Source: Erysipelotrichales bacterium
Lineage (GTDB): Bacteria > Bacillota_I > Bacilli_A > RF39 > UBA660
DNA length: 64,000 nucleotides
Direction of reading: 5' to 3'
Assembly (NCBI GenBank): GCA_022508565.1
Contig: JAFLUY010000003.1
Coordinates: 69,599 to 133,598, forward strand
How positions within the stretch are numbered: the stretch's first letter is position 1; the number at the start of each line of letters is the position of its first letter. The position numbers and the translations under genes were made by a program. Positions 31,745 through 63,795 of this stretch are shown piece after piece. A model generated the notes under the pieces. It was not told the origin of the DNA and ran no database searches. It saw only the letters and a program-made list of their open reading frames with translations.

Positions 31745-33658
31745 CTAAACATCTAGATTTTCTACATAATGAGCATTTTCTACGATAAAATCTCTTCTTG
31801 GCTCTACATTATCACTCATTAGCAATTCAAATGCTGCATCAGCTGCCATTGCATCATCAACAGTTATTTGTTTTAAAGTTCTCTTTTCTGGACTCATTGT
31901 TGTTTCTCTTAATTCAATAGCGTCCATTTCTCCTAAACCTTTAAATCTACTAATTTCTTTTTTTGTATTTTCTGGTATTTCTGCTAATATTTGATTTAAT
32001 TCATCATCTGTCATTGCTAGCTTTTGATTTTTTCCATATGTAACTTTGTATAAAGGGGGAGTTGCTGCATAAACATATCCTCCTTCAACCACAGGTTTAA
32101 AGAAACGATAGAATAATGTTAATAATAATGTTCTAATATGTGCTCCATCAACATCGGCATCGGTCATTATTATTATTTTATGATATCTTAATTTTTCAAT
32201 ATCAAATTCGTCGCCAATTCCTGTACCAAAAGCAGTTATCATACTTCTAATTTCTTCATTAGCTAAAGCTCTATCTAAACGTGCTTTTTCGACATTTAAT
32301 ATTTTTCCACGAAGAGGAAGAATTGCTTGAGTCATAAAGTCTCTTCCATCTTTTGCAGAACCACCTGCCGAATCACCTTCGACAATAAATATTTCACATT
32401 CACTTGGATCTTTACTCTTACAATCAGTAAGTTTACCCATGAAGTTAATATTATCTAATCCGCCTTTTCTTCTAGTTAATTCACGTGCTTTTTTAGCAGC
32501 TAATCTAGCTCTAGCAGCTGTAGTACACTTTTCAACTATTAATCTAGCTTCATTAGGATTTTCCATAAGGAATCTTTCAAATCCTTCATTAAATAGGTCT
32601 GAAGCAATCTTTCTTACTTCACTGTTACCTAATTTAGTCTTTGTTTGACCTTCAAATTGAGGATTTGGGTGTTTACAAGAAATAATCATTGTAACACCTT
32701 CTCTAACATCATCGCCAGTTAAGGCTTCATCATTATCTTTTAATAATTTATTATTACGTGCATAATTGTTAATTACTCTTGTTAAGGCATTTTTTACACC
32801 GTCTTCATGTGTTCCACCTTCAACAGTATGAATATTGTTAGTAAATGAATAAATATTTGAATTATATCCATCATTATATTGCATTGCAACTTCAACAATA
32901 ATACCTTCTTGTTCTCCTTCAACATAAATTACATTTTCATGTAAAGGCGTCTTATTTTTATTAAGCATTTGTACATACTCAATTATTCCGCCTAAATAAT
33001 GATAAGTTGCATTCTTTTCATCTTCTCTTTCATCTCTTAAGAAAATTTTTAGTCCTTTATTTAAGAATGCTATTTCTCTTAATCTTTGTTCTAATGTTTC
33101 ATAACTATACACAGTAGTTTCTTGAAAAATTTCTGGATCAGCTTTAAATCTTACTTCGGTTCCTGTGTTATTCTCATCACACTCACCTATAATTTCTAGT
33201 TTTCCAGTAGGTTTTCCGCCATTTTCAAATCTTAAAAAATGAATTTTACCTTCTCTAAATACTTTAACTTCAACCCAGGAAGATAAAGCGTTTACTACAG
33301 ATGCACCAACTCCATGAAGTCCACCACTAACCTTGTAGCCTCCACCACCGAATTTACCACCAGCATGTAATACAGTAAATATTGTTTCAATAGTTGATAA
33401 ACCAGTTTTTTCATTAATACCTGTTGGCATTCCTCTACCGTTATCTCTAACTTTTATTATATTTCCTTTTTCAATAGTTACTTGAATTTCTGTACAATAC
33501 CCAGCTAAAGCTTCATCAACTGCGTTATCAACAATTTCCCATACTAAATGATGTAGACCTCTTTCACTAGTTGTACCTATATACATACCTGGTCTTTTTC
33601 TAACAGCTTCTAGTCCTTCCAATACTTGAATTGCACTATCGTTATATTCATTTTTCAT
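31745..33658 (-). CDS. gyrB: DNA gyrase subunit B
   Basis: GHKL ATPase, Toprim [20 protein letters not shown]. Start at MKNEYNDS with GAGGAGG RBS. Confidence 0.95.
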
Positions 33659-34748
33659 AACATTCCTCCTCAACTTTACCATTTATAACATTAAAAATCT
33701 TACTATTTTCTTTCAATTTATTTGCTACTTTATCTAATTCTGTAGTTGTAACAAAGGTTTGAATCTCATCACTTATAAAATCTAAAATATTATTAATTTT
33801 CTCTTCATCTAACTCACTAAATAAATCATCTAAAATCAATATAGGAACAACCCCTTTTTTATCCTTAAATATCTCAATTTCTCCCATTTTTAAGGAAATA
33901 ATGGCATTTTTTTGTTCACCCTCAGAACCATAATCTTTTAAACTAAAATTATTTAAAGAAAAATCATAGTCATCTCGATGAATTCCTATATTTGTCTTTC
34001 CTAAAACTATATCTCTATCTTTTTCTTTTTTATAAATGTTTTTCAAATCCTCTTTAGATTTTCCAGTATAATTAGAATTATATTTTAATTCTAATCCTTC
34101 TTTTCCAGCAATTTTTAAATAATTTTTACTTATATAGACATTTAAATCATTTATAAAATTTTGTCGATAATCATTCACTTTTAAACCTAATTCTATTAAT
34201 TGATCAGTTAAAATATCTAAATAATCTAAAGAAGCATTACCATTTAAATACATAGTTTTAAGATAAGAATTTCTTTGCTTTAGAACTTTATTGTAGTAAG
34301 TTAATATTTTTAAATAATCATTAGATAACTGTGATAATTCAATATTTATTAACTTTCTTCTAGTATTAGGTGTATCTTTTATTAATTTTAAATCTTCAGA
34401 AGTAAATAAAACTATATTAATATTAGATAAGTAATAAGCTAATTTTTCTATATTAGTATTATTAATTTTAACTTTCTTCAAATTATTTTTAATAATAACC
34501 TTATAATTATCTTTATTTTTATCCTCTATTGTTCCTTCAATTCTCGTAAGATCAGTATTATTTTTAATAACTACTTCTTCTTTTGAACCTCTAAAAGATT
34601 TAGTAAATGCTAAAACATATATGGCTTCAACTATATTAGTTTTACCCATTCCATTTTTACCAATAATTATATTTTTTGATGGATTAAATGAAAGTTCTAA
34701 TTTTTCATAATTTCTAAAATTTAGTAACTTTAAATTTAAAATTTTCAT
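33648..34748 (-). CDS. recF: DNA replication/repair protein RecF
   Basis: Walker [10 protein letters not shown] and LDDLFSELD. Start at [14 protein letters not shown] with AAGGGGG RBS. The 39-aa upstream extension in the ORF track is rejected. Confidence 0.85.
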
Positions 34749-34864
34749 TTTAACCCCCTTAATTTCAATTTTAAGTGATTTTATATAATTATAGGTACAC
34801 CTATACCACATAATAATTATATCACAAAATAGATATATAAAAAAGATTTTTATAAAAAAGAACA

Positions 34865-35308
34865 TTATTTTTTTCTTAAATAATGTTCTAATTTTGTGGA
34901 TCTTAAAATTTGATTATTTATTATATTTAAACTAACATTAAAATCTATTAATATTCCGTTAGTAAATTCTATTACAGTAACCTTTTTTAACTTATTATAA
35001 TGTACTTTACTTATATTAGATAAATTAACCCATGCTACCTCTTTTAATCGGGTAGAGCAAGTTGGAAAGAATATTAAATTTTCTTTTTCACTTATTAAAA
35101 TAGGACACTTATAATTACTACCAACTAATTTTTCCGCACTTTTTTGTCTTCCATCAATTGTACTGCCATTTTTAATACAATTAATATTAACGATAACATT
35201 TGGTCTTTTATTTATAATGAATATTTCATCAGCTTCATAAACTATAGATTTATTATTATCGCATGGAATTATCGCTAAAGTCTTAGAATTAATAGTATAA
35301 TCCACCAA
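34865..35308 (-). CDS. ComK-family protein (competence transcription factor-like), TTG start
   Basis: Compared with B. subtilis ComK by recall: TLAIIPC/ATIAVLPE, LIFFPTCSTR/IFLFPTLSSTR, KEVAWVNLSNISKVHYNK.../QCGWISHVHVKEF... TTG start preceded by AGGAGGTG. Confidence 0.55.
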   Translation of the reverse strand: MVDYTINSKTLAIIPCDNNKSIVYEADEIFIINKRPNVIVNINCIKNGSTIDGRQKSAEKLVGSNYKCPILISEKENLIFFPTCSTRLKEVAWVNLSNISKVHYNKLKKVTVIEFTNGILIDFNVSLNIINNQILRSTKLEHYLRKK

Positions 35309-35386: not shown

Positions 35387-36508
35387 TTAATAAGTTTTTA
35401 TAGGTAAAACTAGTTGTATTAATGATTCATCTGATACAGACTTAATAACAATTGGTTTTGAATCACTATTCATACAAATAATTATATCTTCATCATCTAT
35501 AGTTCTTAAAGCATCCATCATATACTTAGCACTAAATGATATCGAAATATCATCCATAATATTTCTATCAACTGTAATTCTATTTTCAGCTTTTCCAATT
35601 TCTGATGCATATGAAGTAATAATAAGTTCATTATTATTAGCATCCATTTTTACAATATTCTTTTCTTTACTTTGTGTTAATAATGATGCACCATCTATAG
35701 CATTAAAGTAATCATTTAATTTAACAGATATAATATGTTCAAATTCTGCTGGAATAAAATTAGCTGTATTTGGATAAGTTCCATTTAATAAATTTGATTG
35801 AAAAATAATATTTTCATATTTAAACATAATTTTATTATCAAATATATGAATTTCAACATTTTTATTTTCTTCGCTCATTATTTTATCCAATTCATTAATA
35901 TTTTTCCCAGGAATCACAATATCAACAACATCTTCATAAACATCAGTTAAATTAATTGTCTTTTTAGCTAAACGATAAGAATCTGTTGCTGTACATTCTA
36001 ATAAATTACCATTAACTTTTATATTTATACCAGTAAGCAATGGTCTTGATTCTTGAGTTGATACTGCAAATATAGTTTGTCTTATCATTTTCTTTAAATC
36101 ACCTGATTTAAGTTCAATAAAATGTTCGTTATCTTTTAAATCTATTTGTGGATAATCTAAACTATTTAAACAATTTAAATTATATTGACTAGTTTCTGTA
36201 TAAATTAGTATTTTTAATCCATCAATTACTTCAAAATTAATAACATCACTAGGCATCTTTTTAATGATTTCTAGTATATATTTACTTTGAATAATTATTT
36301 CTCCTTCAATTTCAATTTTTTCAATTTTATCTTTAGGTATAAAAGATTTAATTGTTAGATCAGAATCACTTGCAGTTAATGATAATCCATCTTTACTTAA
36401 TTCAAATTTAATTCCATTTAATATTGGAATAATATTTCTTGTTGATATAGCCTTACTAACATTTGTTAATTGTTCTAAAATAATATTTTTCTTAATTGAA
36501 AATTTCAT
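35387..36508 (-). CDS. dnaN: DNA polymerase III beta sliding clamp
   Basis: 373 aa, three-domain clamp pattern. Position directly downstream of dnaA. Confidence 0.9.
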   Translation of the reverse strand: MKFSIKKNIILEQLTNVSKAISTRNIIPILNGIKFELSKDGLSLTASDSDLTIKSFIPKDKIEKIEIEGEIIIQSKYILEIIKKMPSDVINFEVIDGLKILIYTETSQYNLNCLNSLDYPQIDLKDNEHFIELKSGDLKKMIRQTIFAVSTQESRPLLTGINIKVNGNLLECTATDSYRLAKKTINLTDVYEDVVDIVIPGKNINELDKIMSEENKNVEIHIFDNKIMFKYENIIFQSNLLNGTYPNTANFIPAEFEHIISVKLNDYFNAIDGASLLTQSKEKNIVKMDANNNELIITSYASEIGKAENRITVDRNIMDDISISFSAKYMMDALRTIDDEDIIICMNSDSKPIVIKSVSDESLIQLVLPIKTY

Positions 36509-36657
36509 TTTTTTCCTTCTTTCTTTTTTTATTTATTTTATATAATTATTATTATTAGGGTTGATAAAGTTGAAAACTATTATTTATTCCTTAATTATAG
36601 TGTTTTGAACAGAAAAGTTATTAATTTTTATTGTTTAAAACTTACTATTTATTAACA
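36509..36657. promoter_or_regulatory. dnaA-dnaN spacer: candidate oriC unwinding element with degenerate DnaA-box-like 9-mers
   Basis: Extremely AT-rich. Contains GTTGAAAAC and TTTTGAACA, relatives of the TTTTCAACA repeat upstream of dnaA. Confidence 0.45.
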
Positions 36658-38007
36658 TTAATTAACTATTCTATCTTTAATTTCTTTAATTTGTTTTCTT
36701 AAATCTTCATTTTTATTATATTCTTCATTTATTTTATCACAAGCATGTATTACAGTAGCATGATCGCGATTAAATTCTAATCCAATTCTTTCAATTGTTT
36801 CTTCTGTAGTCATCTTACATAAATACATAGCAACTTGTCTTGCATGATTTATATTTGCTGTTCTTTTTTTGCTTTTTAAATTTTCTACAGTTAAATCATA
36901 ATATTCAGCAATAGCTTTTTGAATTTTGCCTATATTATTAGTTATATATAATGAATTACCAAAATAATCTTTTAAAGCATCTTGTGCAAATTCTAAATTA
37001 ATTTCTTTAGGAGAATACATTGCTGTAACAGCATATAATCTATTAATAGCGCCCTCAAGATGTCTAACATCACTTTCAGAATTATTTGCCATATATTCTA
37101 ATACTTCAGGTTTTATAAATTGAGATACTTCATGACCGGCAATTTTATTTTTTATAATTTTTAATCTTAATTCATAATCGGGTGGGGTAATATTTACTGT
37201 AATTCCCCAAGAAAATCTAGTTTTTAAACGATCTTCTAATACCTGTAAATCATCCGGCGATCTATCAGAACTTATTATTATTTGTTTTTTTCCTTCATGT
37301 AATGAATTAAAAGTATTAAAGAATTCATCTTGAGTTTTAGTAGCTCCTCCAAAAAATTGAATATCATCAATAATCAATACATCGATATTGCGATATTTAT
37401 TTTTGAATTTTTCTTCAAGTTCGTATTTATCTTCATCTGTTTTATATCTTCTAGTAAAATCTTCAACAAATGTTTCACTTGTAACATATAAAACTGATTT
37501 TTCTGAATTATCTTTAATATAATTACCAATAGCATGCATCAAATGTGTTTTACCAAGACCACTTTTACCATATATAAATAGGGGATTATAAAGTTTCCCT
37601 GGCTGTTCAGCTACAGATAATCCTACAGTTGCTGCTAATCTGTTTGTATCGCCAATCACAAAATTATCAAAAGTATAACTCGGATTTAAATTTGAATTAT
37701 TTTCCTTAAATTTAGGAATATCGACTTTTTCTTCAATAATTACTGGTTCATCTTGTACTACTTCATCAGGAGTAACTATTTCATATGAATAAGCTTCATC
37801 AGAACAATTAGCAATAGCTTCTTCAATAACATCATCATAATAAGATAGAAGATGTTGTTTAATATAATTAGAATTAACTTTTATTATTAAAGTACCATTT
37901 TCTATATTAGTTAATTCTGTATCTTTGAACCAGATATTAAATGAAATATTAGATACTTTTGAATAAATATAATCAAGACATTTTTTCCAAAAATTTTCCT
38001 TGTCCAT
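36658..38007 (-). CDS. dnaA: chromosomal replication initiator DnaA
   Basis: AAA+ GKSGLGKTHL, DDIQF, C-terminal DNA-binding domain. First gene of the - strand block at the strand switch. Confidence 0.95.
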   Translation of the reverse strand: MDKENFWKKCLDYIYSKVSNISFNIWFKDTELTNIENGTLIIKVNSNYIKQHLLSYYDDVIEEAIANCSDEAYSYEIVTPDEVVQDEPVIIEEKVDIPKFKENNSNLNPSYTFDNFVIGDTNRLAATVGLSVAEQPGKLYNPLFIYGKSGLGKTHLMHAIGNYIKDNSEKSVLYVTSETFVEDFTRRYKTDEDKYELEEKFKNKYRNIDVLIIDDIQFFGGATKTQDEFFNTFNSLHEGKKQIIISSDRSPDDLQVLEDRLKTRFSWGITVNITPPDYELRLKIIKNKIAGHEVSQFIKPEVLEYMANNSESDVRHLEGAINRLYAVTAMYSPKEINLEFAQDALKDYFGNSLYITNNIGKIQKAIAEYYDLTVENLKSKKRTANINHARQVAMYLCKMTTEETIERIGLEFNRDHATVIHACDKINEEYNKNEDLRKQIKEIKDRIVN

Positions 38008-38349
38008 TTAACCACCCTGTTCTAGTCTAATTTCTAATTAAATTTTATAACTTTTTTGTCGAAAAAGTAAAGAAAAATGTCGTAATAAAAACTATCAACA
38101 GACTTTTCGACAATTTTTTCAACAATTTATACACTATAATATAATGGATTAAATGAGTTTTCAACATTTTCAACAAATTTTTAAAAATTTATTTCAACAA
38201 GTTATAAAAAGTTTTAAACATTAAACGTTGATATTGTTGAAAAGTGTATTAATAACCTATTTTATAAGGAAAAGTAGGGAATAGTTATTGACTTATAAAT
38301 TTTAATATAATATAATAACCTTGCTTTGAGATGTGGAGGTGGAGCATTT
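38008..38349. promoter_or_regulatory. oriC region (dnaA-rpmH spacer) with repeated TTTTCAACA / TTTTCGACA 9-mers; contains the rpmH promoter
   Basis: At least 5 copies of TTTTCAACA-like and 2 inverted TTTTCGACAA/TTGTCGAAAA, plus one ACTATCAACA. TTGACT-17-TATAAT at 38288-38316. Gene-strand switch occurs here. Confidence 0.6.
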
Positions 38350-38472
38350 ATGAAGAGAACTTTTCAACCAAATAATCGTAAAAAGGCAAAGAAACATGGA
38401 TTCTTCGCTCGTAAAAATACAAAAATTTTAAAAACTAGAAGAGCTAAAGGACGTAAAGTACTTTGTAAGTAA
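38350..38472 (+). CDS. rpmH: 50S ribosomal protein L34
   Basis: [40 protein letters not shown], found by hand; too short for the ORF track. Confidence 0.9.
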
Positions 38473-38475
38473 TCT

Positions 38476-38497
38476 AAGCCACTTTGTGGCTTTTTAT
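38476..38497 (+). terminator. hairpin plus T-run between rpmH and rnpA (partial terminator/attenuator)
   Basis: AGCCAC-TTT-GTGGCT then TTTTTATT. Confidence 0.5.
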
Positions 38498-38515
38498 TCT
38501 ATTTGGAGGATTTTT

Positions 38516-38839
38516 ATGAAAAAATATGAAGTAGTTAAAGAACATAAAGACTTTGATGAAATAATAGAAAAAGGCAAATATATAAAAAGTAAAAATTTTG
38601 TTATATATAATAAGGATAGTAAAAATGATTTTCCAAGATTTGGAATTGCAGTTGGAAAAAAAGTCGGAAATGCCGTAACTAGAAATAAATTAAAAAGACA
38701 ATTTAGAATGTTATTAACTACAAATAAAAATCTGTTTTCAAATAATAAAGATTATATTATAATAGTGAAGAGAAGTTCATTAATGTCTAGTTATCAAGAC
38801 TTAGACATAGAATTAAAAAAAATAATGGAAAATAGGTGA
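38516..38839 (+). CDS. rnpA: RNase P protein component
   Basis: Basic 108-aa protein with RNR-like motif KKVGNAVTRNKLKR. Start at MKKYEV with GGAGGA RBS. The ORF-track start at 38486 lies in the terminator. Confidence 0.8.
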   Translation: MKKYEVVKEHKDFDEIIEKGKYIKSKNFVIYNKDSKNDFPRFGIAVGKKVGNAVTRNKLKRQFRMLLTTNKNLFSNNKDYIIIVKRSSLMSSYQDLDIELKKIMENR

Positions 38840-38843
38840 TACA

Positions 38844-39773
38844 ATGAAAAAGAAAATAGTAGTTGTATTTGCTATCATTTTATTAACATTAACTGGATGT
38901 ACCAAATCTTTAATGGATGATGATAATAAAAGAGTAGTAAATGAAAGCACAGGTCAAAGTTTAACAGCCAATATTTTATGTTTGCCTGAAAATGAGAGTT
39001 TATTAGATGAATATAAAAAATATGAAAAAAATATGGCTATAAAACTTGAAGATTTACCAAAATGTACTAACATGAAAGTATATGAAAAGAAATCCTATAG
39101 TGGACTATGGGTTGGATTATTTGTAAGACCACTTGCGTGGTGTATTATTAGATTAGGTAAATTATTTGGCAATTATGGTTTATCTGTAATGTTAATTGGT
39201 TTATTGATAAGATTATTAATGATGCCAGTAAGTGCTAAAACAGCTAAACAACAAGAAAATATGAAGAAAATTCAACCAGAAATGGAAAGAATAGAAAAAA
39301 AATATGCTAATAAAAATGATCAGGAGTCAATGATGAAAAAAAGCCAAGAAACATTAGCTTTATATCAAAAATATAATATAAATCCAATGAGTAGTTGCTT
39401 AGTATCATTTATTCAATTACCTTTATTCTTTGCTTTCCTAGAAGCTATTAATCGTGTACCAGCAATATTTGAAAATTCTTTCTGGAAATTTCAATTAGGT
39501 ACAACACCATTAGTTGGATTAAAAGACGGAAATTATTTCTATATAATTTTAATCGTACTTATCCTATTATTTACTGCATTATCATTTAGATATAGCATGA
39601 GTTCAATGAGTAGTTCTCCAGAACAAGTAAAACAAACAAAATATATGTTAATATTTATGACAGTATTTATTGGAGTAGCATCATTCCAACTACCATCTGC
39701 AATCGCGCTATACTGGGTAGTAACAAATGCATTTAATGTAGTCCAAATGGTATTATTAAAGAAGAGAGGTTAG
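38844..39773 (+). CDS. yidC: membrane protein insertase YidC/SpoIIIJ (lipoprotein type)
   Basis: Lipobox LTGC, then five-TM Oxa1 core, basic C-tail. Confidence 0.85.
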   Translation: MKKKIVVVFAIILLTLTGCTKSLMDDDNKRVVNESTGQSLTANILCLPENESLLDEYKKYEKNMAIKLEDLPKCTNMKVYEKKSYSGLWVGLFVRPLAWCIIRLGKLFGNYGLSVMLIGLLIRLLMMPVSAKTAKQQENMKKIQPEMERIEKKYANKNDQESMMKKSQETLALYQKYNINPMSSCLVSFIQLPLFFAFLEAINRVPAIFENSFWKFQLGTTPLVGLKDGNYFYIILIVLILLFTALSFRYSMSSMSSSPEQVKQTKYMLIFMTVFIGVASFQLPSAIALYWVVTNAFNVVQMVLLKKRG

Positions 39774-39776
39774 TAT

Positions 39777-40388
39777 ATGAAAATAGAAGTATTTGAAGGA
39801 AAAGAAGAAAAAGAGGTTTTAGCTGAGGCATTAACTAAATTAAATAAAAGTGAAGATGAAGTTATGTACTATGTAACAAAATCTAAAGCTGGTCTTTTAA
39901 AAAAAGAAGTAGTTTCAGTTCATATTGCTACCTATGAAGATATAATAAGTTTTATTAAAGAATATTTAGCATCTTTAACAAAAGATATGGGACTTGAAGT
40001 TTCTTTTGAATCAATGATTAGAGAAAAACAAATAACTATAAAAATGTATTCAGACAATAATAACATTTTAATTGGAAGAAATGGACAAACTCTTCAAGCA
40101 TTAACAACTGTAGTTAAACAAGTAGTATATAATAATATTAATAATTATCCTTATTTAATATTAGATGTTGAAAACTATAAGGAAAAGAAAATTAAATATT
40201 TAGAAAGATTAGCTAAGAATATTGCTAGAGAAGTAGCACAAACAAAAAATCCTGTTGAATTAGAAAATATGAATTCTTATGAAAGAAGAGTAATTCATAA
40301 TATATTAACAGATAATACAAAAGTTTATACTGAAAGTGTTGGAGAAGAACCAAATAGACACGTAGTAATAAAACCAAAAGAGGATTAA
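39777..40388 (+). CDS. khpB: Jag/KhpB (KH plus R3H RNA-binding protein)
   Basis: Position after yidC, KH-like and R3H-like segments. Confidence 0.7.
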   Translation: MKIEVFEGKEEKEVLAEALTKLNKSEDEVMYYVTKSKAGLLKKEVVSVHIATYEDIISFIKEYLASLTKDMGLEVSFESMIREKQITIKMYSDNNNILIGRNGQTLQALTTVVKQVVYNNINNYPYLILDVENYKEKKIKYLERLAKNIAREVAQTKNPVELENMNSYERRVIHNILTDNTKVYTESVGEEPNRHVVIKPKED

Positions 40389-40440
40389 ACCTCTTTTTTT
40401 ATTGAAAAATGTGATATAATACGACAAACGGAGGGGTAAT

Positions 40441-41793
40441 ATGACTGATAATATATGTGCAATATCAACCGCATTAGGAGCAGGGGCAATCTCTATTGTT
40501 AGATGTTCTGGTCAAGATGTGGTTGAAATAGTAAATAAATTATTTAAAGGTAATGACTTAACTAAAGTTCAATCTCATACTATTAATTATGGTTTTATTG
40601 TAGATAAAGAAGAAGTAATTGATGAAGTATTAGTATCAGTTATGTTAGAACCTAATACTTTTACTTGTGAAAATATTGTTGAAATAAATTGTCATGGTGG
40701 AATAGCAACAACTAATAAAGTTTTGGAATTATTACTAACTAATGGCTGTCGTTTAGCAGAACCAGGGGAATTTACTAAAAGAGCATTTTTAAATGGTCGT
40801 ATTGATCTAGTGGAAGCAGAAGGAGTAAATGATTTAATTTTTGCCGAAACTGAAGAATCAAGAAAATTTGCCATCAATAGGGTAGAAGGCAACTTATCTA
40901 ATCTAATCAAGAAATTAAGGGAATCTTTAGTATCTATGCGTGCAGAATTTGAAGTTAACTTTGATTATCCCGAAGAAAGCGATGCTCCAGAAGTAACACA
41001 TAAAATGGTTATTGAAGAATTAACTAAGATTAAAACAAAACTTGAAGATTTACTTAATACTAGTAAAGATGGTGAAATAATAAAAAATGGTATTAATATA
41101 GCTATTATTGGACGACCAAATGTTGGGAAAAGTAGTATATTAAATCATTTACTAGATCAAGAAAAAGCAATTGTAACTAACATAGCAGGAACAACAAGAG
41201 ATATAGTTGAAGGAACTATCACACTTGATGGTATTAAAGTTAATTTAATTGATACAGCAGGAATAAGAGATACTGAAGACATTGTTGAAAAAATAGGTGT
41301 AGATAAAAGTATTAATTTCTTCAATAAAGCTGATTTAGTAATATATGTTTTAAATAATAATGAAGAAATATATGAAAAAGAATTAAGTTTAATTAATGAT
41401 AATTCTGTTGAAAAAATTATCTTTATTAACAAAAATGATTTAGAATCTAATATAGATATTACAAAGCTTCAGAATCAAAATATAATTTACGGCAATACAG
41501 TTACCGAAAAAGGTTTAGATAATTTAAAAGAAGAAATAAAAAGATTATTTAATTTTGATAAATTAAAGAGTAATAATTATAATTTGCTTGCAAATGCAAG
41601 ACAAACAGCATTAGTAAAAAAAGCAATTAACGCTATTAATAATGCAGTGGAAAGTACAAAAAATGAAGTACCTTTAGAGATGATTGCTGTTGATATAGAT
41701 GATGCTTTCAACTCGTTAGGCGAAATTATAGGTGAAACTTACAAAGATGAATTACTAGATGAATTATTTTCAAAATTTTGTTTAGGGAAGTGA
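40441..41793 (+). CDS. mnmE: tRNA modification GTPase MnmE
   Basis: G-domain GRPNVGKSS, DTAG, NKND, C-terminal CLGK. Confidence 0.9.
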   Translation: MTDNICAISTALGAGAISIVRCSGQDVVEIVNKLFKGNDLTKVQSHTINYGFIVDKEEVIDEVLVSVMLEPNTFTCENIVEINCHGGIATTNKVLELLLTNGCRLAEPGEFTKRAFLNGRIDLVEAEGVNDLIFAETEESRKFAINRVEGNLSNLIKKLRESLVSMRAEFEVNFDYPEESDAPEVTHKMVIEELTKIKTKLEDLLNTSKDGEIIKNGINIAIIGRPNVGKSSILNHLLDQEKAIVTNIAGTTRDIVEGTITLDGIKVNLIDTAGIRDTEDIVEKIGVDKSINFFNKADLVIYVLNNNEEIYEKELSLINDNSVEKIIFINKNDLESNIDITKLQNQNIIYGNTVTEKGLDNLKEEIKRLFNFDKLKSNNYNLLANARQTALVKKAINAINNAVESTKNEVPLEMIAVDIDDAFNSLGEIIGETYKDELLDELFSKFCLGK

Positions 41794-58590: not shown

Positions 58591-59220
58591 ATGTCTAAAA
58601 AAATGAAGGAAATATTAAGTGTAAGTTTCTTAATCGTATTTGTTGCAGTAATAGTTGGAGTTGTTTCATTAGTATCTAAAAATATTTTTTATGCAATGGC
58701 GCCAGATGGAAATTCATATGTCTTAAGAGATATAGTGTCTTATGATTTGCCAGTTATTAGTGAAGTTGATGAAAAAATAGGAAAACCATTTAATGATGAA
58801 ACAGTAAATGTTCAAGTAAACTTTTATAATCTTGCAGATGATTCAGAAAGACAAGAAAAATCTTTAATACTATATGATAATACTTATATGCCTAGCACAG
58901 GAATACTATATTCTAGTGAAAACTCATTTGATGTATTATCTGTAGCATCAGGAACAGTTGAAAATATTGAAAATAATGAAGTGTTTGGCACAATTATTAC
59001 TATAAAACACAACAATAATTTCACAACAAAATACTCAAGCATTAAGGATGCCCAAGTAGAAATCGGTGATACAGTTAATGCTGGTGAAATAATAGGTACT
59101 AGCAGTGTTAATAAAGTAACAAGTGTTTCTGAAAACATGCTTTTATTTGAAATGATATATGATGGAAAATATGTAAATCCAGAAGATTACTATGACAAAG
59201 TAATAGAAGAAATGAATTAA
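58591..59220 (+). CDS. membrane-anchored LytM/M23-like domain protein (possibly degenerate, SpoIIQ-like)
   Basis: N-terminal TM plus C-terminal beta-rich domain with IITIKHNNN...GEIIGTS pattern. Confidence 0.45.
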   Translation: MSKKMKEILSVSFLIVFVAVIVGVVSLVSKNIFYAMAPDGNSYVLRDIVSYDLPVISEVDEKIGKPFNDETVNVQVNFYNLADDSERQEKSLILYDNTYMPSTGILYSSENSFDVLSVASGTVENIENNEVFGTIITIKHNNNFTTKYSSIKDAQVEIGDTVNAGEIIGTSSVNKVTSVSENMLLFEMIYDGKYVNPEDYYDKVIEEMN

Positions 59221-59750
59221 TGAATAAACATGATACATATGTTAAATTAACTGATAAATATATATATGTATATTCAAATAAAACATTAAAGAAATATGAT
59301 TCAAAATATATAAAAAATGGAAAAGTTGATAATACTCATAAATTAATAATATATTTAAACAACTTATTAAACAAAGGAATATTTAAAAGAAGGTATATTT
59401 TTATATTAGATACTTTACTATGTAATTCAGATTTATTTGTTTATAAATATGTATTTGAAAACATGGGTTTATTAAATTATAAAATAATTAATGATATTGA
59501 TATATTAAAAAATCATCTAAATGATGATAATATAATAATTATGAATTGGAGTTCGTCTATTAATTATTGCTATATAAATAATAATGAAATAGTGATTAAT
59601 AAATTTAATGAGAAAATTATAAATAGAATAGGTAAAAAGTATATAGTAATGTGTGGAGATACTAAGACACATTTAAAAACAAACATTCCAGTGTTTAACT
59701 ACGAAGATGAGTATAATGTTATATTCAATTTTTTAAAAGAAAGTAACTAA
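59220..59750 (+). CDS. hypothetical protein (176 aa)
   Basis: ORF overlapping the stop of the upstream gene. Confidence 0.45.
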   Translation: MNKHDTYVKLTDKYIYVYSNKTLKKYDSKYIKNGKVDNTHKLIIYLNNLLNKGIFKRRYIFILDTLLCNSDLFVYKYVFENMGLLNYKIINDIDILKNHLNDDNIIIMNWSSSINYCYINNNEIVINKFNEKIINRIGKKYIVMCGDTKTHLKTNIPVFNYEDEYNVIFNFLKESN

Positions 59751-59781: not shown

Positions 59782-59878
59782 TAAAAAAACGAAGCAGTCC
59801 CCCTGAGAACTGCTTCAAAGAATAAAAAGGGGTTGGCTAGTGTGATACTAGCACCAATTCGCCTGTAAGTGAATTGGT
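59782..59878 (-). ncRNA. candidate small RNA antisense to the recG 5' leader (own promoter and terminator)
   Basis: - strand TTGACA (59908-59913) -17- TACTAT (59885-59890). - strand terminator GAAGCAGT-loop-ACTGCTTC (59790-59815) plus U7. No - strand gene within 11 kb upstream to explain the terminator. Confidence 0.35.
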
Positions 59879-59956
59879 AGTTAATATAGTAATCGATAAG
59901 GCTGTTTTTGTCAACACTTTTTTTACTTTTTTTTAAAACTTTTATGGAGGCATATT

Positions 59957-61948
59957 ATGGAACTATCAAAGATAAAAGGTATTGGTCCTAAAACAATAGA
60001 ATATCTTAATAAAATAAATATCTATGATTGTGATTCTCTTCTTAGATATTATCCTTATAGATATAATGTTTTAACGCCAACTTTATTAGATGATAATACA
60101 AGTGATGAAACCATTATTATACCCGGAACTATTACATCTCTTCCTAAGGTATCATATATTAAAAGAAACTTTAATAGACTAAGTTTTACGTTTGAAACTA
60201 ATAAAATACCAATTAATGTAGTAATCTTTAATCGTGCTTTTCTTGCAAGAAATCTAACTATTGGCAAAAAAGTAACGTTAGTGGGTAAATATAATAGATT
60301 AAATAATCAATTTGTAGCAGCTGATATATTATTATATGAATTGAAGAGCACTAAAGTAGAACCTGTGTACCATACTATTAATGGATTAAAGATGAGTACA
60401 ATTACTAAATCAATTAATAATTGCTTGTTATCAAATATTGAAATAAAGGAAATAATCCCAGAATATATTACAAGCAAATATGATTTTATTGATACTAAAG
60501 CAGCAATTAAAGAAATTCATAATCCTTCAAATACTAATTTACTTAAAAGTGCTCGTTTAAAACTAATTTACGAAGAATTATTTGAGTTTATGTTTAAGAT
60601 TAATATAATGAAGTATAAAAACCAAATATATGATGATTTTTCAATTAAGCTAGTTGAAGATAATGCACTAGAAAATATACTTTCAAGTATTCCATTTTCT
60701 TTAACAAATGATCAATTAAGCGCTATTAATGAAATAATATCTGACTTTAAAGGTTTTAAAAGAATGAATAGATTAATACTAGGCGATGTTGGATCAGGAA
60801 AAACGATTGTGGCATTTATTGCAATTATATTAAATAAATTAAGTGGTTTCCAAAGTGCACTCCTTGCACCTACAGAAGTTTTAGCACATCAACATTATGA
60901 AAACTTTATTAGTCTATTTAAGGATATAAAAGTTGGATTATTAGTTGGTTCATTAACTAAAAAAGAGAAAAATGAAATAATAGAAAAACTAAAAAATAAC
61001 GAAATTGATCTTTTAATTGGTACTCATGCAATGTTAGAAGAGAATGTTGAATTTGCAAATATCGGATTAGTCATAACTGATGAACAACATCGATTTGGAG
61101 TTAATCAAAGAAAATCATTACAAAATAAAGGGAAGTATGTTGATGTTCTTTATATGTCAGCAACTCCAATACCAAGAACGTATGCGTTAACTATTTATGG
61201 TGATATGGATATATCCTATATTAAAGAAAAACCTGCTGGAAGGAAAGACATAATCACAAAGCAATATAAGTTTAAAGACATGAAAAAGATAGTATCTACT
61301 ATTGAAGAAGAACTAGAAAATGGACATCAAGCTTACGTTATTGCACCATTAATTGAAGATGAAAATAATACTGAATTAAATGATTTAAAACAAATTGAAG
61401 ATATTTTAAAAGAAAACCTAAAAAAAAATTATAATGTTGGAATACTTCACGGTAAGATGAAACAAGTCGAAAAAGACAAAGTTATGAACAATTTCAAAGA
61501 AGGAAATCTTGATATTCTTATATCTACAACTGTTATTGAAGTTGGGGTAGATGTTAAGAATGCTACAATTATTACAATATTTAATGCTGAAAGATTTGGC
61601 TTAGCAACTCTTCATCAGCTAAGAGGAAGAGTAGGAAGAAATTCGCTACAATCAAAATGCCTACTTATTTCTGATAAAGATACAGAAAGATTAAGTGTTA
61701 TGGAAGAAAGTAATGACGGATTCTATATTTCAGAAAAAGATTTTGAAATAAGAGGATCAGGAGATTTATTTGGAATTAGACAATCTGGTGATATGACATT
61801 TAAAATTGCTGATATTAGGAGAGATTTTAAGATATTATTACAATGCAAAAAAGATGCAGAAGATTTTGTTTTAAATAATATTGAGACAGACTTCCGTGAT
61901 TACTCTTACTACAAAGATATACTAGAGCATTTAATCAATAATAATTGA
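59957..61948 (+). CDS. recG: ATP-dependent DNA helicase RecG
   Basis: GDVGSGKT, DEQHRFGV, QLRGRVGR, N-terminal wedge domain. TGnTATAAT promoter at 59765-59773 gives an about 175-nt structured 5' UTR. Confidence 0.9.
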   Translation: MELSKIKGIGPKTIEYLNKINIYDCDSLLRYYPYRYNVLTPTLLDDNTSDETIIIPGTITSLPKVSYIKRNFNRLSFTFETNKIPINVVIFNRAFLARNLTIGKKVTLVGKYNRLNNQFVAADILLYELKSTKVEPVYHTINGLKMSTITKSINNCLLSNIEIKEIIPEYITSKYDFIDTKAAIKEIHNPSNTNLLKSARLKLIYEELFEFMFKINIMKYKNQIYDDFSIKLVEDNALENILSSIPFSLTNDQLSAINEIISDFKGFKRMNRLILGDVGSGKTIVAFIAIILNKLSGFQSALLAPTEVLAHQHYENFISLFKDIKVGLLVGSLTKKEKNEIIEKLKNNEIDLLIGTHAMLEENVEFANIGLVITDEQHRFGVNQRKSLQNKGKYVDVLYMSATPIPRTYALTIYGDMDISYIKEKPAGRKDIITKQYKFKDMKKIVSTIEEELENGHQAYVIAPLIEDENNTELNDLKQIEDILKENLKKNYNVGILHGKMKQVEKDKVMNNFKEGNLDILISTTVIEVGVDVKNATIITIFNAERFGLATLHQLRGRVGRNSLQSKCLLISDKDTERLSVMEESNDGFYISEKDFEIRGSGDLFGIRQSGDMTFKIADIRRDFKILLQCKKDAEDFVLNNIETDFRDYSYYKDILEHLINNN

Positions 61949-61971
61949 CAAATTTTCAAAATTTGTATAAT
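61945..61971 (+). promoter_or_regulatory. strong promoter (perfect TTGACA plus TGTATAAT) driving the small-RNA candidate
   Basis: TTGACA 61945-61950, TATAAT 61966-61971 with TG immediately upstream. Spacer 15-16 nt. Confidence 0.5.
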
Positions 61972-61977
61972 ATTATT

Positions 61978-62085
61978 ATAGACATGATACCAAAATATCA
62001 TGTCCGATATCTCCAAACGATTTTACATTTTGGAGATTATCAACCAAAACCCCCTGAAGAGAGCGCAAGCTCTCATTTTTGTTTG
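61978..62085 (+). ncRNA. candidate small RNA (three hairpins, C-rich single-stranded CCCCCUGAAGA, intrinsic terminator)
   Basis: Hairpins GACATGATA/TATCATGTC, ATCTCCAAA/TTTGGAGAT, and terminator GAGAGC-GCAA-GCTCTC plus AUUUUUGUUUG. The downstream gene has its own TGATATAAT promoter at about 62135. Confidence 0.4.
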
Positions 62086-62162
62086 TCTGATAGTATCGCG
62101 TAATTATTATTGTTTCCGATTTAAAAAAAAACTATGATATAATTAATTATAGGAGGGTAATA

Positions 62163-63011
62163 ATGGAAGCAAGAGATTTAAAAAAGTTATCATTATCTAA
62201 TTTAGCATTTATAGCTTTAAATCCAACTTCTAAATCAGACTTAAAAAAATTTGCTGAAATAGAGATACAATATCGAATGAGAAACTTAGGTATGGAGTAT
62301 CAAGATTTTCTTCATAATGAAAATGAATGCCTAAACGTTAGAGGTTTTGATTTAAGAAATTATTTAATTGGACCAAAACCAACTATGCAACAATTAATGG
62401 AGTTGTATTATAAAGAATTATATGGAAACCAACTTGAACTTAGTAATTTACTATTTAGTGAAAGACATCTTTGCAATGTACTAGATTTTCCAGGAGGATT
62501 CTTTAATAGAATATGTGATTTAGAAATTGACAATTTAGATAGATTATCAAGAGAAAACGCAACAGAATATAATGAGTTGTCTTTAGATTTGTTTAAACAG
62601 GCTTTGGTTGAACGCAAAACTTGCATAGAAGACACAAAAAAATTCTATGAAGGAAGTGAGCTTTTTACACTTAATGATGCAGTTCAGTATATAAGTGATG
62701 AAATGATGTTGGAGTTTGGTACAAACCTAACAGATGAACAATACTATCAACTTTCAGGTTCAAGATTAAGAATTCTAAAACACCTTTTCTTAGAATTTTT
62801 AAACGATGGTATACTTGATGCAGATTTCTTCCAAGAATCGTATGCATTATGGAAAGCACTTGAAGATAGATCTAAATTAAGTTTACAAAGAAGAATACTG
62901 CTTAGTGAAGCTAAAAATGGTAATTCGATTAATTACAAAGCACCTGAAATGCAGGCAGTTTTAAAAAAGATAAAAACTCACTTAAATGAACAAAAGAATG
63001 AAAGCAAATAA
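62163..63011 (+). CDS. hypothetical protein (282 aa)
   Basis: ORF with AGGAGGG RBS and its own extended -10 promoter. Terminator GCAAAT..ATTTGC plus T7 at 63005-63030. Confidence 0.5.
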   Translation: MEARDLKKLSLSNLAFIALNPTSKSDLKKFAEIEIQYRMRNLGMEYQDFLHNENECLNVRGFDLRNYLIGPKPTMQQLMELYYKELYGNQLELSNLLFSERHLCNVLDFPGGFFNRICDLEIDNLDRLSRENATEYNELSLDLFKQALVERKTCIEDTKKFYEGSELFTLNDAVQYISDEMMLEFGTNLTDEQYYQLSGSRLRILKHLFLEFLNDGILDADFFQESYALWKALEDRSKLSLQRRILLSEAKNGNSINYKAPEMQAVLKKIKTHLNEQKNESK

Positions 63012-63159
63012 TTAAATTTGCTTTTTTTATTGATATATTTTTAATAAATATGTCTAAGAAAGAACACTTTAGAAATATGTGCGCATCATAAAAACAACTA
63101 AAAAAGAGGTCATTGACTTAATAAGTTTTTCTTATATATAATTAAGTTGGTGATAAAAT

Positions 63160-63795
63160 ATGGCATCTTCAATTATACATATAGCAGTTGCTAATGAGAT
63201 TAATAAAGAATTAAATAAAGACAAAAGTAAAATACTTATTGGTACAATAGCACCAGATATTTCTAAACATATTGGTGAGCCGAAGGTAGGAAGTCATTTT
63301 TTAATAGATCCTGAAAGTGGCATTCCCAACATTCAGAAGTTTTTAGATAAATATAAGAATAATTTAACTGATGATTTTGTAATGGGTTATTTCATTCATT
63401 TATATACAGATTACTTATGGTTTAAATACTTTATACCAGAATTTATTGATACAGAAAAGATTACAGTAACAAAAAAAGATGGAACAACAATCAAATGTAG
63501 TCTTCACCTATTGGATTTATTTGTCTATAATGACTATTCAAATATAAACAATTCTTTAATTGATGAATATGATCTAGATTTAAAAATATTTTATGAAGAA
63601 GTTCCAAAATTAGATAATATAATAGAAGAGATTCCAATGGATAGGATTGATATAATTGTTAATAAAACAGGCATAATTATTGAGAATTCTAAAGAAACAA
63701 AGGAGTTGACTTTCGGTATGGATGAAATAAAACAATTTATCAGTATGTGTGTAAAAATCATATCAGAAGAAATAAATAGACTAAATATTTGTTAA
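63160..63795 (+). CDS. hypothetical protein, possible metal-dependent hydrolase (His/Asp-rich N-terminus HIAVANEI...APDI...SHF...HLYTDY)
   Basis: ORF with TTGACT-17-TATATA promoter upstream. Terminator AAGCTTA..TAAGCTT plus T7 after the stop. Confidence 0.4.
   Translation: MASSIIHIAVANEINKELNKDKSKILIGTIAPDISKHIGEPKVGSHFLIDPESGIPNIQKFLDKYKNNLTDDFVMGYFIHLYTDYLWFKYFIPEFIDTEKITVTKKDGTTIKCSLHLLDLFVYNDYSNINNSLIDEYDLDLKIFYEEVPKLDNIIEEIPMDRIDIIVNKTGIIIENSKETKELTFGMDEIKQFISMCVKIISEEINRLNIC

Follow-up and report, generated by a model that had tools for sequence, protein, structure and literature searches.

A predicted small RNA gene beside recG in AT-rich gut Bacilli, with a C-rich candidate seed and a putative integration site at its 3' end

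RsaE/RoxS, a small RNA (sRNA) that depends on ResD/SrrA and responds to nitric oxide, represses central-metabolism mRNAs at their Shine-Dalgarno sequences. The C-rich regions of several Firmicutes sRNAs (RsaE/RoxS, FsrA and CsfG) pair with G-rich Shine-Dalgarno sequences, and RoxS has three to four C-rich regions, in which CCCCUUUGUU is duplicated (PMC4409812). C-rich sRNAs of this kind can have G-rich partner sRNAs, for which the sponge pairs RosA/RoxS and RsaI/RsaE are precedents (PMC8216469). Here we describe a predicted sRNA gene, called D, which lies next to recG in a 64,000-nt stretch (the window) of contig JAFLUY010000003.1 from an Erysipelotrichales bacterium with a G+C content of 26%. 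On balance, we favour the reading in which positions 61945–62082 of the window hold the gene of an sRNA of ~100 nt which is also an integration site and pairs in trans with G-rich RNA.

D resembles RsaE/RoxS, FsrA and CsfG in that it would be a stand-alone RNA of ~100 nt that folds into hairpins, leaves a C run accessible and ends in an intrinsic terminator. However, in contrast to RsaE/RoxS, D has a single C5 run placed inside a 20-nt invariant block, and its neighbour is recG. The initial annotation of the window, made from the letters only, had compared the C-rich stretch to the seeds of RsaE/RoxS-type RNAs, and a C-rich single strand ahead of a terminator in an RNA of ~100 nt is indeed what a diverged member of that family would look like. 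This kinship did not survive the comparison. Neither the search with 2.7 kb nor that with the 121 nt of D gave a match of D to RF01820 at E<=10 (gathering score 79 bits), D has one C run and not several C-rich regions, the CCCCUUUGUU duplication is absent, and the genomic context differs. The faint RsaE score that was seen (14 bits, E = 2.6) belongs to a neighbouring minus-strand sRNA gene, U, and not to D. Overall, we regard it as extremely unlikely that D is a diverged RsaE/RoxS.

Rfam 15 gave no match to D when the whole window was searched at gathering scores, and at E<=10 the searches with 2.7 kb, with D alone and with U alone gave nothing above noise. The best near-match of D is Plasmid RNAIII (RF00235, 22.6 bits, E = 1.5, gathering score 60), which has a similar series of AT-rich hairpins. 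It was taken as a chance match, because the score is far below gathering, the context is chromosomal and there is no plasmid match. Phage and plasmid collections contained no informative match to D, with no related sequence in 72,556 plasmids, and literature searches with the D and U sequences and with the core CCCCCTGAAG, discussed below, found nothing relevant. D is, as far as these searches indicate, previously uncatalogued as an sRNA gene.

The promoter of D is of the sigma-70 type and consists of the -35 hexamer TTGACA (61945–61950, plus strand), which overlaps the recG stop codon TGA at 61946–61948, and the -10 hexamer TAATAT (61968–61973), separated by the 17-nt spacer that is found family-wide. 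The promoter had been called perfect, and for TTGACA this is correct. However, TATAAT (61966–61971) is just 15 nt away from it, while TAATAT fits the 17-nt spacing, and the TG is outside the canonical TGn register for both hexamers. The 5' end is placed at ~61979, based on the geometry of the promoter and on where the match to the covariance model begins. Together with the predicted fold, the model match gives a transcript of ~100–105 nt, roughly 61979–62082 on the plus strand. Thus, a discrete unit of ~100 nt was rightly proposed, but its length of ~108 nt was slightly too large. Within the window, recG has no terminator of its own ahead of D.

Three hairpins are predicted in D, in agreement with the initial annotation, the last being the terminator. 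Hairpin 1 (61981–62004) has 9 bp, in which GACAUGAUA (61981–61989) pairs with UAUCAUGUC (61996–62004). Hairpin 2 (62006–62041) has 12 bp and one bulge, with arms at 62006–62017 and 62029–62041, and a hand alignment shows a semi-conserved ACGA...AUGU motif in the top of its stem and its loop. The invariant block UAUCAACCAAAACCCCCUGAAG (62038–62059), which contains the candidate seed, follows. The 17 nt AACCAAAACCCCCUGAA (62042–62058) are predicted to be single-stranded, so the C-rich stretch was correctly described as unpaired; the sole C run of D, a C5 run, is found at 62050–62054. The intrinsic terminator (62059–62082) is GAGAGC-GCAA-GCUCUC, forming a predicted hairpin at 62059–62074, and then AUUUUUGU; the T-rich run AUUUUUGUUU is directly 3' of this hairpin. 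The minimum free energy of the D fold is -32.3 kcal/mol, which is far below that of dinucleotide shuffles (z = -7.35).

The spacer of the D promoter contains a perfect 7-1-7 palindrome (AAATTTTCAAAATTT, 61951–61965), which is kept in the closest relatives, L002 and L005, but not family-wide. This palindrome could be an operator particular to that lineage, or a coincidence in AT-rich DNA. When the promoter spacers of the D homologues were compared, no operator common to the family was found.

To collect homologues, the exact 19-mer CAACCAAAACCCCCTGAAG from the D tail was scanned against metagenome contigs. It is present in at least 120 of them, and human gut assemblies are among the contig names listed. 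Relatives were also anchored on recG. Four species-level relatives identified via RecG (68–78% identity) all contain D, with the same promoter, an identical ATCAACCAAAACCCCCTGAAG, compensatory changes in both hairpins and terminators that differ. Eight more recG-anchored contigs also contain D, with AUCAACCAAAACCCCCUGA unchanged in all eight. D is therefore present in 12/12 of the recG-anchored relatives examined (RecG identity 67–82%), and AUCAACCAAAACCCCCUGA, with its C-rich stretch, is identical in every one. The invariant block of ~20 nt, AUCAACCAAAACCCCCUGAAG, is located directly ahead of the terminator and is mostly unpaired. These comparisons indicate that D is conserved across a broad clade of uncultured gut Bacilli with very AT-rich DNA (labelled Erysipelotrichales), usually just 3' of recG. 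The gene 5' of D is recG in 36/61 informative loci, while other genes are found in the rest (21 clusters in all), and the first ORFs (open reading frames) 3' of D fall into 52 clusters among 73 loci.

The structure of D is supported by covariation. MAFFT and RNAalifold applied to 88 D sequences recovered hairpin 1 alone and misaligned hairpin 2, and this alignment was replaced by a covariance model, R1, built from 16 sequences with a hand-annotated seed alignment. R1 finds one copy of D per locus and one in the window, at 61978–62059 (79.3 bits, E = 2.7e-15). In the alignment of 86 distinct sequences 92.8% of the cells are paired, compared with 68.2% in column shuffles and 33–51% when the partners are slid. 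Double changes occur at all 21 base pairs of the model, i.e., at the 9 pairs of hairpin 1 and at 12 in helices 2 and 3, and there are 402 double-change cells against 105 in the shuffles. This alignment is fitted to the model, which favours structure; however, the margin is large.

The transcription signals are conserved as well. Among 104 unique upstream regions the promoter matches at 10 or more of the 12 hexamer positions in 82, the spacer is 17 nt in 85, and the -35 hexamer is TTGACA in 65 and TTGACT in 18. A hairpin followed by a T run is present in 115/117 unique 3' regions. From the promoter and terminator signals in the window, their conservation among homologues and the covarying hairpins, D appears to be an independent, structured sRNA gene, as the initial annotation had proposed, and not a leader, a feature of a 3' untranslated region or a small ORF. 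Two such candidates were examined and rejected. The ORFs of 45 and 52 amino acids (aa) that cross the region have no Pfam match, and they run across arms that carry compensatory substitutions and indels. A riboswitch or leader of the downstream gene was dismissed on the grounds that the downstream genes differ in nearly every genome.

Genes for tRNAs and tmRNA (ssrA) are integration sites of prophages and genomic islands, and sRNA loci can also be insertion hot spots, as exemplified by the ryeA/ryeB (sraC/sdsR) locus of Salmonella. The 3' end of D appears to be used in the same way. In 48 pairs of loci the sequences are at least 95% identical upstream of D and less than 50% identical downstream of it, and in 36 of these 48 pairs the first mismatch is found 19–25 nt past the start of CAACC, i.e., right after CUGAAG. 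Identical D bodies with identical upstream flanks carry unrelated terminators and downstream DNA, and the same terminator and flank can be found behind different D bodies (L061 and L088; L018 versus L047/L107).

A gene for a tyrosine integrase (PF00589) is located on the opposite strand within 2 kb of D in 13/73 loci. These genes point at D, and in several loci they start 130–155 nt past the seed. In the viral contig L130 from IMG/VR, which is read as a prophage, D is followed by an integrase with an arm-binding domain and then by ORFs, of which one reads like SSB. In 13 loci there is a second, direct copy of CCCCCTGAAG with a hairpin and a T run, but without an sRNA body, 0.2–4.4 kb downstream. 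The identity of these distal copies begins exactly at the C run, and by our own estimate ~0.1 copies of this 10-mer are expected by chance in the ~1 Mb searched. Almost no second copies of the longer 17-mer were found; the att repeats emerge at the 10-mer core. In L119, two related cassettes are arranged in tandem. As cargo, the repeats enclose genes for Fic, AbiEi/AbiEii, a type I-like methylase and an acyltransferase, the last with a second gene that has no annotation, as well as unknowns; in L133, a DUF1016 nuclease gene is found between D and the second copy of the core.

Taken together, the flank divergence, the direct repeats and the adjoining integrases point to CCCCCTGAAG (62050–62059 in the window, not assigned to a strand) as the attB-like crossover core for tyrosine integrases of prophages and small islands. 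The repeats and integrases at D have what looks like the attL/attR signature known from tRNA and tmRNA genes: an integrase beside the 3' end, direct core repeats, a restored 3' end and tandem elements. In contrast to those sites, the target here would be a previously undescribed sRNA, the repeated core has 10 bp, and the element restores the terminator of D alone, the sequence of which is free to differ. We suggest that an incoming element brings a new terminator right after the core, by which the D RNA gene would stay intact, while the displaced terminator and a copy of the core would end up at the far end of the inserted element. Through such insertions, the region downstream of D would have become a hypervariable island. 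Integron-like cassettes were also considered; they were not adopted, as the arm-binding domain of the L130 integrase is of the phage type and the hairpins resemble ordinary terminators.

The terminator in the window is of the GAGAGCG(A/C)AAGCUCUC type, which is often displaced to the distal repeat (L012, L090 and L121), and hairpins of the GAGAGCGAAAGCUCUC type are found at the distal repeats of the same three loci. No integrase is present in the 2 kb that the window covers downstream of D, and therefore the site in the window is probably either unoccupied or the remains of an old integration.

Could the conservation be that of a DNA recombination site combined with the terminator of recG, with no functional RNA at all? 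The core CCCCCTGAAG does appear to serve recombination, and recG lacks a terminator before D, as such an explanation would have it. However, conservation of an attB site gives no benefit to the host, the promoter is conserved even where recG is not the upstream gene, and the covariation of both hairpins reflects selection at the RNA level. Further, integrating elements supply a replacement terminator directly behind the core, which would be pointless unless the gene had to be kept whole. We therefore consider the absence of a functional RNA very unlikely.

Several contigs end at this site. L002, L005 and L131 end just past D, ~143 nt after recG, which we attribute to integration at D, and L049, L105, L117 and L030 end within or next to D. 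These assembly breaks fit strain-level variation at an integration junction. Inverted copies of CCCCCTGAAG were also seen near D, at +83 to +85 from the core in L066, L099 and L115, at +190 in L004 and L137, and at +390 in L101, where the inverted sequence also takes in part of the D body. They could be inversion products or elements in the other orientation. Finally, a recurrent motif, (T)ATAAGGGTTTG(C), which the window lacks, is located 10–30 nt past the terminator of the element in many integrase-bearing flanks (e.g., L018, L036, L039, L047, L096 and L130). Possible roles are that of an arm site for the integrase or of the point at which the integrase transcript ends.

Returning to the proposed function of D, we infer that its C-rich strand pairs with G-rich ribosome-binding sites. 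D would act in trans, with the single strand pairing to G-rich RNA, and ribosome-binding sites with G runs are the candidates. The window contains six G5 or C5 sites, and G5 runs are rare in these AT-rich genomes. In ~1 Mb, G5 runs are found at Shine-Dalgarno distance from ~35 ORFs, including recF of the window, which has the G run AAGGGGGUUAAAAUG before a start at 34748. The best seed duplex within the window is predicted at the ribosome-binding site of a comK-like gene (-18.8 kcal/mol), followed by those of mnmE, dnaA and recF. No outlier emerged when the window and 599 translation start regions in the loci were scanned.

Some details of two of these genes are worth recording. The recF ORF spans 33648–34865 on the minus strand, where the ATG at 34748 is preceded by AAGGGGGUU and by an extended -10, tgtgatataat; recF is probably shorter than its longest ORF. 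Its G run, one of the six G5 or C5 sites of the window, is complementary over 8–9 nt to the C run of D and also to that of U. The ComK-family gene (PF06338; 34865–35308, minus strand) is located between dnaN and recF, and its ribosome-binding site and start region, UCAGGAGGU...AUUUGGUGGAU, is complementary, in two parts, to the invariant block of D over its whole length.

The other G-rich RNA of interest is U, a predicted sRNA of ~98 nt encoded on the minus strand at 59783–59880, 5' of recG, which is identified by its promoter, fold and comparative alignment. Its promoter (59886–59914) consists of TTGACA (59914–59909), a 17-nt spacer and TACTAT (59891–59886). TTGAC is kept across the homologous loci, mostly as TTGACA and in three as TTGACT. 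The predicted RNA contains hairpin 1 (ACCAAUUC...GAAUUGGU, 59878–59853), the invariant hairpin 2 (59852–59836), a single-stranded CAACCCCUUUUUAUUCUUU (59835–59817) and a terminator (59817–59790), followed by a U7 run (59789–59783). The fold energy is -33 kcal/mol (z = -5.9). The 135 nt 5' of recG are almost invariant among genomes in which RecG is just 68–78% identical. The invariant stretch of U is GCUAGUAUCACACUAGC-CAACCCCUUUUUAUUCUUU, and a 46-nt block, GCUAGUAUCACACUAGCCAACCCCUUUUUAUUCUUU, is identical in 29 distinct aligned sequences, bar one base in L057. In the same 29 sequences the terminator stem occurs in at least 15 different versions. By these alignments U appears to be more conserved than D.

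The initial annotation had placed an upstream copy of the D motif in the loop of a recG-leader hairpin and proposed a small family of related RNA elements. The pattern CCCCCTGARGA matches just once in the window, at 62050, and the upstream site reads CCCCCTGAGAA, unlike the pattern in D. What the two sites do have exactly in common is the 8-mer CCCCCTGA, which is found at these two sites only in the 64 kb, against 0.18 expected; two or more matches were obtained in 2/100 shuffles. The upstream site does not belong to a leader but to the terminator loop of U (59799–59808, minus strand; CCCCCTGAGA on the plus strand, UCUCAGGGGG in the U RNA). A leader element on the plus strand was rejected, as its A run corresponds to the U tail of a terminator on the minus strand, the promoter on that strand is conserved, and the U terminator stems hold 59 G-U pairs, which would be A-C mismatches if read on the plus strand. 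Nor do the two form a family, since U is a different sRNA on the opposite strand, whose RNA carries the reverse complement of the motif. Being on the other strand, the U RNA carries UCAGGGGG, the complement of CCCCCUGA in D. The shared motif would thus favour an RNA-RNA contact over common family membership, although the case is not a strong one.

The C-rich strand of D may therefore also pair with the G-rich terminator loop of U, UCAGGGGG, in which case the two sRNAs would interact as a pair. As in RosA/RoxS and RsaI/RsaE, a G-rich region, here the loop of U, is complementary to the C-rich region of its putative partner. However, in contrast to those pairs, the complementarity between D and U is only 8–11 nt, with the G run in what is predicted to be a terminator loop. 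It can be speculated that D works mainly as the partner of U, with CCCCCUGA(AGA) of D pairing with (UC)UCAGGGGG of U, and one titrating or destabilising the other; we regard this as possible but unlikely. Besides the 8-mer being restricted to the two genes, it is favoured by the conservation of the loop UCAGGGGG in 25 of the 29 distinct U sequences although the stem varies and covaries. The complementarity reaches 10–11 nt in L037 and L120, and in L132, where D reads ...CUGAGA, the match is lengthened through a change in D. D and U are also syntenic around recG in many loci, and U bears a C-rich single strand of its own, similar to RsaI, in which G-rich and C-rich regions occur together (PMC8216469). 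Set against this, the U core was detected in just 16/29 loci with RecG and sufficient upstream sequence. The energy of a full-length D-U duplex was also calculated and is no better than that of shuffles, so such a duplex was rejected.

An extended version of this scenario, which we regard as rather unlikely, would tie the two roles of the locus together. D and U would be an interacting pair flanking recG, and the pairing 10 nt, CCCCCUGAAG, would be the universal landing pad, throughout the clade, of one family of integrases, so that integration could retune D and the locus may become an accretion site for defence cassettes.

Several observations weigh against pairing in trans as the function of D. 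Cofolding of D and U is more favourable than the separate monomers by only ~2 kcal/mol, because the G run of U is predicted to be partly paired in its own stem, within the terminator. In at least two lineages of U (L035/L055/L060/L063 and L057/L123) the loop has no G run while the seed of D is kept; the contact with U cannot be universal, and therefore U cannot be the sole partner of D. Among the mRNA candidates none is exceptional, as the energy of the comK-like duplex is matched by 1 of the 599 start regions elsewhere. Most D loci were fetched by the exact 19-mer and are useless for gauging the invariance of the seed, which is therefore judged on the 12 recG-anchored genomes alone. Finally, the 20-nt invariant block is longer than a typical seed and may reflect contact with a protein or with some other conserved partner.

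This last point leads to a different explanation, in which D is a protein-binding RNA and its invariant C-rich strand a platform, e.g., for a KH-domain protein or another protein that binds C-rich RNA. The length of the block and the lack of a convincing mRNA target in the window would both agree with this, and the window encodes a KhpB/Jag-type protein with KH and R3H domains at 39777–40388. However, the link to KhpB is the presence of the gene alone, and in Firmicutes a C-rich single strand beside the terminator is a typical trait of sRNAs that act by pairing (PMC4409812). We consider the protein-binding explanation distinctly unlikely and still prefer D as an sRNA that pairs with G-rich RNA.

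RNA regulators have hardly been described in the AT-rich uncultured Bacilli, which are common gut inhabitants of humans and animals. D and U are two putative sRNA families, neither of them in Rfam 15, whose members can be annotated directly on hundreds of metagenome contigs. The att core CCCCCTGAAG would be a practical marker for prophages and small defence islands in these genomes, and its use would explain why assemblies break right after recG. If the pairing of D and U is true, comparative genomics alone would have revealed an sRNA-sRNA partnership, and this in organisms that are still beyond cultivation. In the extended scenario above, each integration would swap the terminator of D and could thereby change how stable or active a host regulator is, and the site may be a locus of cassette accretion for defence genes (Fic, AbiE, restriction-modification) that have no integrase of their own.

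The surroundings of D in the window are as follows. The recG gene (59957–61948, plus strand) encodes the Pfam domains DEAD, Helicase_C and RecG_dom3_C, and its product is 100% identical to a protein from a metagenome-assembled genome labelled Erysipelotrichales. Upstream of it, a 176-aa ORF without a Pfam domain (59220–59750, plus strand) is located between a Peptidase_M23 gene and U, and an ORF of 169–176 aa without a Pfam match is found at the same position in most recG-anchored relatives. Contigs L001, L050 and L087 start inside U; these breaks, at the U terminator, are not covered by the integration reading, as the flank of U is syntenic.

Downstream of D there are two ORFs without a Pfam match, of 282 and 211 aa (62163–63795, plus strand), which occupy the region that is hypervariable in the relatives. 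The first (62163–63011) encodes a 282-aa protein that is not on record in this exact form in a large protein collection. It has an extended -10 of its own, TGATATAAT at 62135–62143, ahead of its ATG at 62163, as was originally noted. Further away, the GC skew changes sign at ~36000–40500. Here dnaA (36658–38007, minus strand) and dnaN are found on one side and rnpA, yidC, khpB/jag and mnmE on the other, and the replication origin is probably located in the gap at 38008–38485.

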